This document shows positions 7,693 to 41,232 of a DNA stretch of 64,000 nucleotides, in pieces. The notes under the pieces were generated by a model, which made no database searches, was not told the origin of the DNA, and saw only the letters and a list, made by a program, of their open reading frames with translations. The stretch's first letter is position 1; each line of letters opens with the position of its first letter. Location of the stretch: the IMG/VR virus record IMGVR_UViG_3300035670_000030, positions 1-64,000 of that record; one strand, 5' to 3'. Source of the DNA: a virus. Position numbers and translations under genes: made by a program.

Positions 7693-8208
7693 TTATTTTT
7701 TAAAATCTTTCATATCAAGAAGTGCATTTTGTGGAACAAACCACGCTGGACGGACGACTCTTGGATTTTTATACATAGATTTAATTTTTTGTTCTGATCT
7801 AAAATATTCTTCTTTCATAACATCTTTTCCTTTTGACCAGCCAATTAACTTAACAGCTTTATAATCGACAGTACAAAAAATATATCTTCTTTCCGGATCA
7901 TCATTATCTCTTAAAATTAAATGCCCATCAAGTTTATTCGTTGCTCTTGATTCAACATCTTTTCCGGCATCTGCTACATTATGATAAGTATTAACCAATG
8001 GATCGGAATTAATATTCAAAAAATCTAAAACGGCCAACTCTCCAAGAACTCCAACTACTTCTTGCGTCATTCGTTCATTGAAATTTCTTTTATATGTCGT
8101 TGCATGATTTAAATTTTTCTTTTCGCTTTCGAACATTCGAATATAAGAATGTTCTACTGCTTTCATCATACGTTCAAAATTTAACTGCCATGAATAAGTT
8201 GTTTTCAT
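7693..8208 (-). CDS. hypothetical protein, possible PD-(D/E)xK-fold nuclease
   Basis: GVLGELAV...DAGKDVESRAT; start moved to ATG 8208 (TAATG overlap). Confidence 0.5.
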   Translation of the reverse strand: MKTTYSWQLNFERMMKAVEHSYIRMFESEKKNLNHATTYKRNFNERMTQEVVGVLGELAVLDFLNINSDPLVNTYHNVADAGKDVESRATNKLDGHLILRDNDDPERRYIFCTVDYKAVKLIGWSKGKDVMKEEYFRSEQKIKSMYKNPRVVRPAWFVPQNALLDMKDFKK

Positions 8209-8621
8209 TACCCAATTGTACAAGTATCAAAATCAATTAATACTGGCTTTCCGTTTACTTTTCCCACATTGTCTCCAAAGAGATCATAAGTAGACCAACC
8301 CATTTTGGCAACATTATGCCTAATTTCTGCAAGCTCTTCTCGATTTACAACATTTTTACCTTGCACCGCGTGTTCAGTCACATAATAAAAATAATCTTTT
8401 TTCTTTCCTTTAAAAAGTGCTTTTGGGCCAAATCCTGCAAAATGTGCCGCACTTTGACGAAAGAAACATTCTTCCATAGCGCGCCGTTTTTTGTAAAATT
8501 TAACTCCATATTTGCCAGTAATTTGAACATAATAATGCACTGTTGCACTATAAGTTCTTTTATGCTTTCTAAAATTAATTTTAGAAATTAAATTAAGGAG
8601 TTTTTTGTGTGTTTTTTTCAT
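8208..8621 (-). CDS. miniature protein-kinase-like protein
   Basis: YGVKFY (beta3 Lys), GPK, DLFGDNVG (catalytic loop), VLIDFD (DFG-like). Confidence 0.65.
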   Translation of the reverse strand: MKKTHKKLLNLISKINFRKHKRTYSATVHYYVQITGKYGVKFYKKRRAMEECFFRQSAAHFAGFGPKALFKGKKKDYFYYVTEHAVQGKNVVNREELAEIRHNVAKMGWSTYDLFGDNVGKVNGKPVLIDFDTCTIG

Positions 8622-30270: not shown

Positions 30271-30299
30271 ATTATAGTGAAGATTTAAATAAATGTCAA
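30271..30299 (-). promoter_or_regulatory. perfect-consensus sigma70 promoter
   Basis: TTGACA-17-TATAAT, 8 nt before ATG 30262. Confidence 0.85.
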
Positions 30300-30478
30300 T
30301 TATTTTTCTTTCTTTCTTTCACCCATTTACTTTTAAATTTCATTGTCCAATCCATTAAAGCATAAGCAAACCCAACATCACGCCCAGCACGTTCGCTTTC
30401 ATACCATTTATGTTTCATTACTTCTTCTTTCTGAGCTAAGAACTCTTTATATATAGAGGTCTTTTCAATATTCATCAC
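30296..30478 (-). CDS. small DUF4032-like protein
   Basis: SIYKEFLA..EEVMKHKWYESERAGRDVGF..AL.DW; GTGTAA at 30493-30488. Confidence 0.7.
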   Translation of the reverse strand: MMNIEKTSIYKEFLAQKEEVMKHKWYESERAGRDVGFAYALMDWTMKFKSKWVKERKKNN

Positions 30479-30506: not shown

Positions 30507-30597
30507 TACTGGGTGCTGGAATCGAACCAGCGCTCGGCCCTCATCTAGGGCACCACGGGTATAAGCCGTGCGGTGCTTCCAGTTACACTAACCCAGT
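30507..30597 (-). tRNA. tRNA with TAT anticodon (nominally Ile) and long variable arm
   Basis: ACTGGGT/ACCCAGT acceptor, CACGG-CTTATAC-CCGTG, variable stem GCCCT/AGGGC, GCTGG-TTCGATT-CCAGC. Confidence 0.85.
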
Positions 30598-31182: not shown

Positions 31183-31226
31183 GTTTTTGATATTATCGGA
31201 ATTTTAAGAAAGAGTCAAATAAAAAA

Positions 31227-31299
31227 TAGCAGGAGTGAGATTTGAACTCACGCATGGTAGGTTATGAGCCTACTGACTTAACCTCTTGTCGATCCTGCA
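31227..31299 (-). tRNA. tRNA-Met(CAT), initiator-like
   Basis: GTAGG-CTCATAA-CCTAC; unpaired 1:72 (T:T); A11-T24. Confidence 0.85.
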
Positions 31300-31305
31300 A
31301 TTAAA

Positions 31306-31647
31306 ATTTGGTGTTTTTATCGCACTTTGGACCAGATCAGAGTTGCGCCTCTGCTGGCATTGTCTAACAACCTGTTAGACTCAGAACACCTAACCATTTA
31401 ACAGCGGTTTTAGCCCATCTAGCTTTGGATAACCCAGAACCCACGCTCTTCTTTTTTGACTATCAACTATAGTAGTCTTATTCACTGTGGAACTCTATAT
31501 GTCTAGCCAGAACACGGACACGTATCCGTTATATAGAGAGGTAGAGTTGCATACCTTAATTAAAGGCGATCCCGATTTTAATGGTTGTACATCGCCACAC
31601 CACCATTTATTAGCATCTCTGCTCCTATCGAGCGGTTTGCTAATAAA
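31306..31647 (-). ncRNA. candidate ~340-nt structured non-coding RNA of unknown family
   Basis: No credible ORF, GC higher than flanks, at least 7 stems, lies between promoter+boxA and tRNA-Met. Confidence 0.7.
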
Positions 31648-31649
31648 AT

Positions 31650-31662
31650 TTTTCAAAGAACT
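31650..31662 (-). promoter_or_regulatory. boxA-like antitermination element
   Basis: AGTTCTTTGAAAA at the predicted transcript 5' end. Confidence 0.7.
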
Positions 31663-31667
31663 ATTTT

Positions 31668-31696
31668 TATATACACTTATTTTATTACTTTGTCAA
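31668..31696 (-). promoter_or_regulatory. sigma70-type promoter of the ncRNA/tRNA operon
   Basis: TTGACA-17-TATATA. Confidence 0.7.
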
Positions 31697-31702
31697 CTGT
31701 TT

Positions 31703-31966
31703 TTAAAATAAAATTTCTAATCCAGTTTCTCCGTAATCGGGCATACCTACATCCATAGAATGACTACTAATATATGGTTGAGCTACTTTGCCTTTAATAT
31801 TTACTCTTTCTGAAATAGGATATGTCGCAGAAATAATATGTTTGCCTTTAATAAATTGTTGGCTACTATATCTTGTTCCAGTGACCTCACCTTTTACTTG
31901 AATTTTGTCAAGATGTTCGCAACTACTGGTTAGTAACAATATCGGGATTATCAATATTTTTTTCAT
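31703..31966 (-). CDS. putative lipoprotein
   Basis: MKKILIIPILLLTSSC signal/lipobox; C-terminal Phe. Confidence 0.7.
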   Translation of the reverse strand: MKKILIIPILLLTSSCEHLDKIQVKGEVTGTRYSSQQFIKGKHIISATYPISERVNIKGKVAQPYISSHSMDVGMPDYGETGLEILF

Positions 31967-32087
31967 TTTCTTTTTCTTTTTTATTCCAATTTATGGCATC
32001 ATAATTATCACGATATTTTTGTGAGAAACAATTTCTTGGTTTATCACCTTTACCAGCGCCACAAGAATTATTATTTTGGCAGTCCAT
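31923..32087 (-). CDS. small conserved phage protein (54 aa; GAGKGDKPR...YRDNYDAINW), absent from ORF track
   Basis: Manual translation; TTGACT(32122)-17-TAATAT-6-ATG. Confidence 0.75.
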   Translation of the reverse strand: MDCQNNNSCGAGKGDKPRNCFSQKYRDNYDAINWNKKEKENEKNIDNPDIVTNQ

Positions 32088-32128
32088 ATTTAGATATTAT
32101 TATTATTTATATAAAAAGTCAATTTTAT

Positions 32129-32175
32129 TTGACAATCATATAAAATTATTGTAATAATATATTATTCTTTGAAAT
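32129..32175 (+). promoter_or_regulatory. tmRNA promoter plus boxA-like element
   Basis: TTGACA(32129)-17-TAATAA then ATTCTTTGAAAT(32164-32175). Confidence 0.65.
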
Positions 32176-32178
32176 TTA

Positions 32179-32636
32179 GGGCGTGTACTGGTTTCGACAT
32201 TTGGTTGAAATTAAAAACGCATGTCGAGGTTAATCGATGGCCTCGTAAAAAATCGATTAAAAAATTAAAAGCAGAAGATAATACTGCCGATATCTTGGCT
32301 GAAGCCGAGTATATCTTTAACAATGCTTCCGAGTTCCTCGGTGGTGTTGAAGAAGAGTATCTCTTAGCAGCCTAAGGTCTTTATAACCAGATCCTCTAAG
32401 GTTATATCGATAAACAGAGGATGTCAGATTGTTGGTAGTTCTGATGTAATAATAAAATATCAACCGTTTATAGATTGCGATAATGTCTATAGGCAGACTG
32501 TAAACTCGGTTAGTATCACCAAGCAGCCTAAAGTCTTCGCTACCGTATGGTAGCTGAAATGCTAAAGACACTTAAACATGTAGACTTTTTAACGTAAATT
32601 AAATGGACAGGAGTTCAACTCTCCTCACGTCCACCA
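32179..32636 (+). ncRNA. ssrA: tmRNA; tag ORF 32271-32375 AEDNTADILAEAEYIFNNASEFLGGVEEEYLLAA*
   Basis: GGGCGTG/CACGTCC-ACCA acceptor with G3.U70, GGTTTCGAC, GCATG/CATGT, pk1 (CGAGG/CCTCG; TAATCGAT/ATCGATTA), T-arm AGGAGTTCAACTCTCCT, tag ending LAA. Confidence 0.95.
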
Positions 32637-40946: not shown

Positions 40947-40962
40947 TATAATTTTCAAAAAA

Positions 40963-41232
40963 CTATTTATGATTAAATTTAAACCATGCATAAACAAGTA
41001 TTATACACATTATAAACCCAACTGAATAATTGGCAAACCACCAAATTCCAAACTGAGTTAAAAACATATAAACCATTCCTGATATGTAACCACAAATTGA
41101 CATCAGTATCAAGCCTAAAGATACATCTTTAGATGAACGATTTTTAAAAATTTTTAAAATTTGAGGTATATAACAAAACATAAAACTAATTGTCATTATG
41201 ATACCGAATATTTGTGCCAAATTTTCTTTCAT
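40963..41232 (-). CDS. PQ-loop / SemiSWEET-like transporter
   Basis: 3 TM helices, YIPQILKIFKNRSSKDVS, AN motif. Confidence 0.85.
   Translation of the reverse strand: MKENLAQIFGIIMTISFMFCYIPQILKIFKNRSSKDVSLGLILMSICGYISGMVYMFLTQFGIWWFANYSVGFIMCIILVYAWFKFNHK

Follow-up and report, generated by a model that had tools for sequence, protein, structure and literature searches.

Comparative evidence for a pseudoknotted non-coding RNA family, absent from Rfam 15, near tRNA genes of large phages

The DNA analysed here, called the window, is the first 64 kilobases (kb) of a 143.7-kb IMG/VR virus record, IMGVR_UViG_3300035670_000030, with a completeness estimate of 82%. The window is AT-rich (GC fraction 0.303) and contains 11 transfer RNA (tRNA) genes, a transfer-messenger RNA (tmRNA) of 458 nucleotides (nt), a DnaE-type polymerase and other replication genes. 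On its minus strand, bounded by an open reading frame (ORF) for a lipoprotein-like protein of 87 amino acids (aa) and by tRNA-Met, lies a stretch that a first-pass annotation had flagged as an unrecognised structured RNA with its own promoter and boxA. The element occurs as a single copy across the 143.7-kb record and, as claimed, is richer in GC than its surroundings (0.406). The claim that it was the only long region free of any ORF or RNA gene held in part: after masking of known RNAs and of ORFs from 90 aa upwards, 31301-32178 was the longest uncovered gap of the window, but further gaps of 380-490 nt were present. Comparison with relatives confirmed, as far as sequence can, that the stretch is a real gene of a structured non-coding RNA (ncRNA) on the minus strand. 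The features of the locus are as follows.

31301-31662, minus strand: the whole predicted ncRNA (approximately 360 nt), extending from its predicted start as far as the last base ahead of tRNA-Met; it has homologs and covariation and no Rfam match.
31668-31696, minus strand: sigma-70-type promoter, TTGACA at 31691-31696, a 17-nt spacer and TATATA at 31668-31673, with GTG before it.
31650-31662, minus strand: boxA-like leader AGTTCTTTGAAAA (= AGUUCUUUGAAAA), at or beside the predicted 5' end of the transcript.
31226-31300, minus strand: tRNA-Met (CAU), immediately downstream of the element and co-oriented, found by ARAGORN and Rfam.

The single sequence folded just mildly better than its shuffles, with z scores of -2.45 for the minus strand and -4.47 for the plus strand, and this did not resolve the strand. 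Because folding energy alone is weak evidence, comparison with relatives was relied on. No match to the element was found by BLAST in 50,697 deposited phage genomes, so that the cultured phages of that set are without it. Three IMG/VR contigs, reached through the flanking 88-aa gene, have a copy that is 83-88% identical, and scans with exact 24-mer and 18-mer words returned these three close relatives only. Conserved-word searches gave 16 and 15 viral stretches and 34 metagenome stretches. The genomes of 185,579 prokaryote species contained one true match, on a 3-kb contig of a Melainabacteria metagenome-assembled genome; a second was a chance match inside a coding gene. The candidates L008, L011 and L060 were discarded as chance pattern matches in GC-rich or coding DNA. 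Removal of duplicates left 36 distinct cores, on which the family counts are based. Members span approximately 290-600 nt, the minimal ones being shorter than 300 nt. Most of the metagenome record names look like what we take to be the freshwater-lake series of the Joint Genome Institute, and one is presumably a Tara Oceans scaffold.

Only four close sequences were enough to give 18 pairs with double changes. In the raw MAFFT alignment of the 36 cores, 82.7% of cells were paired compared with 34-46% in controls (slid controls had their 3' partners moved by 1-3 columns) and double, i.e. compensatory, changes were present in 32 of the 54 proposed pairs. The covariation score of this alignment was 0.285 against at most 0.087, and none of 500 shuffles reached the observed values. 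Covariation among homologs, a check proposed in the first-pass annotation, was thus abundant. A covariance model made from the raw alignment recovered all members at 165-273 bits. In the model-fitted alignment, which leans towards structure whereas the raw alignment does not, 90.9% of cells were paired against 36-44%, and 292 cells were changed on both sides. G-U cells outnumbered A-C cells by 142 to 54, an excess that fits an RNA made from the minus strand, as had been proposed; the promoter and the co-oriented tRNA fit this strand too. When all column pairs were scanned for additional covarying helices, only isolated, clade-linked columns emerged.

That the stretch encodes small proteins can be practically discounted. 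ORFs can be drawn mechanically for 53 aa (31495-31656, minus strand) and 74 aa (31487-31711, plus strand) but their starts are TTG or GTG, the open frames on both strands break or shift among close relatives at 83-88% identity and the substitutions are compensatory across stems. No ORF in the element was conserved among the relatives, including that at 31487-31711, whose conservation the annotation had asked about.

The 375-nt element alone was compared with all 4,227 families of Rfam 15 using cmscan at E ≤ 10 and no family was found for the core. The sole row returned, cow-rumen-4 at 15 bits over the leader, was a chance match. Six divergent relatives gave no match to Rfam 15 at the same threshold. 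The same library detected tmRNAs, tRNAs and, as a positive control, a group I intron (81.8 bits, locus L053) at loci of the family. Full-text searches of the literature found no description of the family. The annotation's proposal of a class absent from Rfam was therefore upheld, with no strong match to set against it.

Two known families deserved particular attention. GOLLD and ROOL are phage RNAs from the neighbourhood of tRNA islands, and both assemble into cages of RNA alone in which kissing loops hold the copies together; the 3' region of GOLLD is conserved, its 5' region is variable and one example adjoins a Met-tRNA (10.1101/2024.12.08.627333 = PMC12286853). The element occupies the same niche, has a Met-tRNA nearby and shows a GOLLD-type layout, in that a core of approximately 250 nt is conserved in 36 sequences behind a 5' part of 38-325 nt, though this is a resemblance and not proof of membership. 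It is nevertheless very improbable that it is a divergent, shortened member of GOLLD or ROOL and no separate family. The best score of the GOLLD model (RF02032, 416 positions, cut-off 150 bits) in the 143.7-kb record was 4.7 bits, noise located elsewhere, in a search where no GOLLD positive control rang. The ROOL model (RF03087, cut-off 99.1 bits) gave nothing at E ≤ 10, a negative for which no control rang and which leans on the cmscan of the element. Neither family appeared at E ≤ 10 on the 375-nt element, neither model matched in nine related or carrier genomes and a GOLLD model search did not find GOLLD as a stand-in for the RNA in relatives that are without it. Judged by these searches, the RNA family is new and catalogued nowhere in Rfam 15, and it belongs in general kind with GOLLD and ROOL without being a member of either.

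Models of ribonuclease P (RNase P) gave no match at E ≤ 10 to the element or six relatives, and its P4 core motifs (GAGGAAAGUCC / ACAGAA..CCGGCUUA) were absent on reading. The group I intron model RF00028 did not match the element either, in line with the annotation's failure to see either signature, and the tmRNA model RF00023 matched the neighbour at 32179-32636, not the element. A resemblance of GCAAACCGC and AAGAGCG to segments of E. coli RNase P, noticed by eye, was dropped because their order does not fit and no model matched. These searches bear on the idea of a new ribozyme class, whose members might cut themselves free of their precursor or aid the processing of phage tRNAs. In its favour, the core has the conservation, the pseudoknots and the invariant junction bases seen in large ribozymes, tRNA genes lie next to it and a conserved AAUUUU tail marks its 3' border. 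Such a ribozyme is quite improbable given that RNase P, group I and group II introns and all self-cleaving classes were without a match at E ≤ 10 in a library that found the intron at L053, and that related phages without the RNA, described below, keep 17-18 tRNAs, so that the RNA is not needed for tRNA processing there.

The promoter, TTGACA-17-TATATA, lies where the annotation had placed it. In close relatives TTGACA and AAGTGTATA are invariant, and a -10-like element is found 5-8 nt before the leader motif in 36/36 members. The promoter was missing from a consensus-scanner list because the scanner rule demands T at position 6 of the -10 element. The boxA proposed for the 5' end was also recovered as a conserved boxA-like motif: a leader of the AGUUCUUUGA type is present in every one of the 36 members, 38-325 nt upstream of the core. 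The window copy, AGUUCUUUGAAAA, is identical to the E. coli rrn boxA, ugcucuuuaacaa (PMC2724277), at 9 of 13 positions. From its position, 5 nt after the -10 element, the boxA-like motif should be the start of the transcript. No description of this boxA variant was found in the literature.

Over the window as a whole a loose boxA pattern was not enriched. Similar motifs precede the tmRNA of the window (AUUCUUUGAAA, 32164) and, by 5 nt, the tRNA-Val of a tRNA cluster (GUUUUUUGAAAA, 40955-40963, minus strand). Another, UGAUCUUUGAUAG, lies approximately 15 nt before the tmRNA of G004, a complete relative that is without the ncRNA (L111, G004:C1 about 127195). This arrangement supports the boxA idea of the annotation as a property of the phage's stable-RNA units, which the boxA-like motif marks in this phage group, and its presence before tmRNA and tRNA units argues against the leader being a strand of the ncRNA fold. 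RNAalifold on four sequences had proposed such a strand in a closing helix between GUUCUUUG, the boxA-like 5' end, and CAAAGUGC at the 3' end. This helix was rejected because the 5' motif is constant whereas the 3' linker, flanked by GGUCC and UGCG, is free to vary (AAAG, UGUU, CGUU, AAUU, UAGUU and others).

Since the element is always first in its transcription unit, right behind the promoter and boxA-like motif, it could be a leader that acts only in cis and gives no free RNA, either modifying RNA polymerase, as in the antitermination by HK022 put or EAR, or guiding the processing or stability of the tRNAs or genes downstream. A terminator check of the locus found no terminator-like site between the element and tRNA-Met, and in some clades a gene for a small membrane protein takes the place of the tRNA downstream. 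Despite this the explanation is unlikely. At 290-600 nt and with several pseudoknots the RNA is far above the size of the known cis antiterminators (about 70-120 nt), the downstream genes differ by clade (tRNA-Met, tRNA-Asn approximately 200 nt away, small ORFs) and relatives without the RNA have tRNA and tmRNA units of the same kinds that are headed by the boxA-like motif only.

The predicted fold consists of a variable 5' domain and the conserved 3' core. In the window, the 5' domain comprises hairpin A (31606-47) and an H-type pseudoknot, PK1 (31565-31605); in other clades it is replaced by modules of 38-325 nt.

31606-31647, minus strand: hairpin A, lower stem of 7-10 base pairs (bp), internal loop AAACC / AGAGAU, top stem GCUC/GAGC.
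31602-31605 with 31582-31585, minus strand: PK1 helix 1, UGGU / ACCA, crossing helix 2 and invariant in the window clade.
31591-31596 with 31565-31570, minus strand: PK1 helix 2, GGCGAU / AUCGCC, which covaries (GGCGGU/ACCGUC in L033).

Hairpin A was 99% paired in 10 members of the clade and two of its pairs were double-changed from A-U to G-C. The L010 clade keeps the crossing topology of PK1 with different sequences, CAGAG/CUCUG crossing AACCAAU/AUUGGUU, and in L052 the first of these helices is CGGAG/CUCCG, one double change. A further RNAalifold pairing, UCGGGAUCGCC/GGUGUUCUG, was superseded by PK1 helix 2 and the long-range helix Hd of the core, which covary.

The core contains approximately 60 invariant positions, largely in loops and junctions, and its features are listed from 5' to 3'.

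31539-31556, minus strand: H1, AGGUA/UACCU with the near-invariant loop UGCAACUC; 98% paired, with U-A changed to C-G in four members.
31493-31538, minus strand: H2, with two branches; 7/8 of the outer pairs changed on both sides; the branch H2a is ACGGA/UCCGU.
31502-31511, minus strand: H2b, UCUGGCUAGA, self-complementary when G-U pairs are allowed.
31481-31492, minus strand: H3, a mini-hairpin of 3 bp, UUC/GAA with loop CACAGU; 98-100% paired.
31458-31477, minus strand: H4, a variable hairpin, GACUA/UAGUC, predicted by folding; its length and sequence differ across the family.
31444-31457, minus strand: purine-rich single strand AAAAAAGAAGAGCG (conserved AAAAAGAAGAGYG), in which AGAG and the next G are invariant in 36 sequences.
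31402-31442, minus strand: pseudoknot PK2; its helix Ha pairs GGGUU (31438-42) with UAUCC (31427-31), and the 5' strand of helix Hb lies in the loop of Ha.
31432-37 with a strand in 31402-11, minus strand: PK2 helix Hb, 5' CUGGGU and a 3' strand within AAAACCGCUG, which lies beyond Hc.
31412-24, minus strand: PK2 hairpin Hc, between Ha and the 3' strand of Hb.
31310-31390, minus strand: 3' domain, in which Hd encloses hairpins F and G and the invariant UGCGAU (31319-24).
31385-90 with 31310-15, minus strand: Hd, GGUGUU / AACACC; 94-96% paired, with one double change (AGUGUU/AACACU in L052).
31362-80, minus strand: hairpin F, all 7 pairs changed on both sides.
31331-58, minus strand: hairpin G, loop GCGCAA (31343-48); outer and inner stems covary.
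31301-31309, minus strand: A/U tail AAAUUUUAA, which separates Hd from tRNA-Met; most members have AAUUUU after Hd, including members in which no tRNA comes next.

Each of the stems in the first-pass annotation proved to be a helix that survived the comparison with relatives: 31606-15/31638-47 is hairpin A, 31565-70/31591-96 is PK1 helix 2, 31493-500/31531-38 with 31514-18/31525-29 is H2, 31458-62/31473-77 is H4, 31362-69/31373-80 is F, 31338-42/31349-53 with 31332-35/31354-57 is G and 31310-15/31385-90 is Hd. The three copies of GUUCUG noted there are present, but the modular RNA they were taken to suggest found no support: conservation across the family extends to two of them only, and the structural surroundings of the three are unrelated.

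Covariation establishes PK2 as an H-type pseudoknot in the conserved core. Ha was present in the constrained minimum-energy fold of 33/36 members; it is GGUU/AACC, with extended variants including AUGGUU/AACCAU and GAGGUU/AGCCUC. Hb has 4-6 contiguous pairs in 33 of the 36 members, the window copy having 3-4 pairs only, and exists as CUGGGU/ACCC.., CUGAGU/ACUCAG, CCGGGU/ACCCGG and CUAGGU/ACCUAG. H3 likewise occurs in four covarying versions, UUC/GAA, UCC/GGA, UCU/AGA and UUU/AAA. The A/U tail is likely a processing spacer. A tRNA-like CCA 3' end was considered and dropped because the ACACC forms part of helix Hd and L052 and L031 have no CCA. One clade (L010, L014, L016, L048, L051 and L057) has an extra small hairpin, CCCGAAAGGGG, with a GAAA tetraloop, inserted after the 3' strand of PK2 Hb, and optional modules in H4 (CUGCAUAAGUCGG) and at the apex of hairpin F are common to several clades.

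The order of element followed by tRNA-Met was found at 15 of the loci listed. In the window clade the ncRNA and the tmRNA stand back-to-back, and tRNA-Met comes directly after the ncRNA, at a distance of approximately 10-15 nt (approximately 10 nt in the window). The L010 clade has a tRNA-Asn approximately 200 nt downstream, and in other clades a small membrane-protein ORF lies downstream with no tRNA near. Thus tRNAs are nearby at most family loci, and the tmRNA, considered as a constant neighbour, holds in the window clade only. By their flanking genes the carriers range from close relatives to phages with nothing in common in the flanks, and at L013 and L053 the RNA adjoins homologs of genes at approximately 113 kb in the window's genome. 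The RNA is present in the complete genomes G002 and G006, with 94-96% polymerase identity. BLAST, pattern and covariance model searches did not find it in the complete genomes G004 and G005, with 74% polymerase identity; these genomes of 140.5 and 154.4 kb have terminal repeats and keep a tmRNA and 17-18 tRNAs. The RNA is accessory and mobile among these phages and, given G004 and G005, is not needed for tRNA or tmRNA function. These two and the carriers form natural plus/minus pairs, and comparative infection could show the benefit of the RNA to the phage.

An accessory, patchy gene is what counter-defence or takeover genes often are, and the RNA might be a scaffold, decoy or sponge for a host or phage protein, e.g. 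a ribosomal protein, a ribonuclease, RNA polymerase or a tRNA-attacking defence nuclease, with the conserved single strands and knots as the binding surface. The invariant positions in loops and junctions and the location among phage tRNAs, beside the tmRNA, suit this explanation. It is a doubtful one, as comparison of the flanks of family loci found no protein gene to be a constant neighbour across clades, and five small neighbouring proteins compared with Pfam and PHROG gave only a weak Rv2632c-like match and a DUF4032 match, neither informative, so that no particular partner is indicated.

Several further observations were made on the neighbouring genes. The DUF4032 match is to the C-terminal part of the domain in a 60-aa ORF of the tRNA region (30296-30478, minus strand; 25.7 bits, Pfam cut-off 23.8). 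The tmRNA of the window (32179-32636, plus strand) is full-length, scoring 133.8 bits with RF00023 with large insertions relative to the model; it was not reported by ARAGORN and has a TTGACA promoter and the boxA-like AUUCUUUGAAA just upstream. A tRNA with anticodon UAU (Ile) at 30507-30597, minus strand, is 91 nt long with a long extra arm, and in several relatives measures 72-94 nt. Downstream of the ncRNA, tRNA-Met measures 75 nt in the window and 90 nt in L004 (3017-3106) and L034 (5671-5760), where approximately 15 nt are inserted after the anticodon loop. In the carrier phage of L053 (7748-8370, minus strand) the group I intron match (7748-7951) abuts a tmRNA match (64.6 bits, 7953-8370), and an intron may interrupt the tmRNA gene or lie behind it.

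On balance, though not by a wide measure of certainty, the analysis favours a stable, trans-acting, highly structured ncRNA of an uncatalogued family present in many uncultured large water phages. Host RNA polymerase would start at the boxA-like motif, which may recruit Nus factors as in rRNA operons and so allow the untranslated transcript to escape Rho. The RNA would be made as the first part of a stable-RNA transcript with the downstream tRNA. Its 3' end would be freed by an RNase P cut at tRNA-Met or, in members without the tRNA, by cleavage in the conserved AAUUUU tail. The compact, knotted RNA would then accumulate during infection and act in trans.

How such a trans-acting RNA would work can be addressed only tentatively. 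The likeliest mode of action, although less likely than not, is that of an architectural RNA that binds copies of itself with H2b as a symmetric bridge, by analogy with the protein-free GOLLD and ROOL and on a smaller scale. The four bases at the centre of H2b are self-complementary in 15 of 16 distinct variants (GAUC, UCGA, CUAG, UUAA, UAUA, GGCU and GGUC), five different strict palindromes being among them, and where H2 has two branches the H2b arm is a near-perfect palindrome. A hairpin gains nothing from a self-complementary loop, so the pattern fits pairing between two RNA copies. A cargo related to translation, suggested by the tRNA and tmRNA neighbours, is a guess. The palindromic arm allows a clean mutate-and-rescue test of RNA-RNA assembly. 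Furthermore, with minimal members this short and main helices set by natural covariation, the RNA is practical for chemical probing, native mass measurement and cryo-electron microscopy.

A number of points weigh against a self-associating, trans-acting RNA. H2b is absent where H2 is a single hairpin, as in 9 of 33 distinct H2 variants, and so the function cannot depend on it throughout the family. For a kissing contact a loop of four bases is small, and an extended duplex would be needed; the window copy of H2b requires two G-U pairs to be self-complementary, and the palindromes could also act at the DNA level. The CUCU of the H1 loop is complementary to the invariant AGAG and could form a tertiary pairing, and the CGCA(A) of the G loop is complementary to the (U)UGCG a few bases downstream, again a candidate pairing. 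Both strands are invariant in each case and, since only invariant bases are involved, these pairings are beyond comparative proof. Two complete relatives do without the RNA, hence its role is dispensable in that lineage. Finally, expression, processing and abundance of every member are inferences from sequence, and so is the antitermination that the first-pass annotation proposed.

Comparison with known systems begins with the leader. Like rrn-type boxA leaders, the motif is followed by an AUU-containing spacer and, besides its 9/13 match, fronts untranslated stable-RNA units (tmRNA, tRNA cluster). Here it lies at the very 5' end, whereas in rrn it is tens of nt downstream of the start, and the binding of Nus factors here is putative. 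A boxA-like 5' end common to ncRNA, tmRNA and tRNA units suggests that the phages copy the host's rRNA-operon trick for transcribing untranslated RNAs. HK022 put RNA and EAR RNA are cis-acting processive antiterminators of 70-120 nt that act on the polymerase that made them. They resemble the element in being structured RNAs that head a phage or operon transcript but are without this core, and the ncRNA here is much larger with no constant genes behind it. The stable RNA species 1 and 2 of T4 (rnaC and rnaD) are located in the phage tRNA cluster, co-transcribed with the tRNAs and released by tRNA-processing enzymes, and would offer an analogy for a stable RNA within such a cluster. They are far shorter, approximately 120-140 nt, and are not known to be pseudoknotted.

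ROOL resembles the present RNA in coming from phages or prophages, in lying near tRNAs and in having several pseudoknots but no protein partner known so far; its model does not match, and size, sequence and helix layout differ. GOLLD shares with the present RNA the character of a large, pseudoknotted, phage-borne ncRNA near tRNA islands, and the self-complementary H2b elements could make symmetric RNA-RNA bridges in the manner of GOLLD. The GOLLD model does not match, many GOLLD RNAs exceed 800 nt compared with 290-600 nt here, and here the RNA is upstream of the tRNA. GOLLD and ROOL are RNA-only homo-oligomers held by symmetric contacts between copies (kissing loops or A-minor bridges), and the self-complementary centre of H2b is a hint of such contacts in the present RNA. 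With rather more reserve than the H2b bridge itself, a third, compact class of self-assembling phage RNA may be imagined, in which protomers of approximately 250-360 nt, made rigid by their pseudoknots, would pair via H2b, and perhaps via the UGCA and GCGC loops, to give a dimer or small closed assembly that is active in infection alongside the tRNAs and tmRNA. The tRNA islands of large phages keep yielding elaborate ncRNAs, none with a known job, and to these the family adds a distinct and much smaller example.

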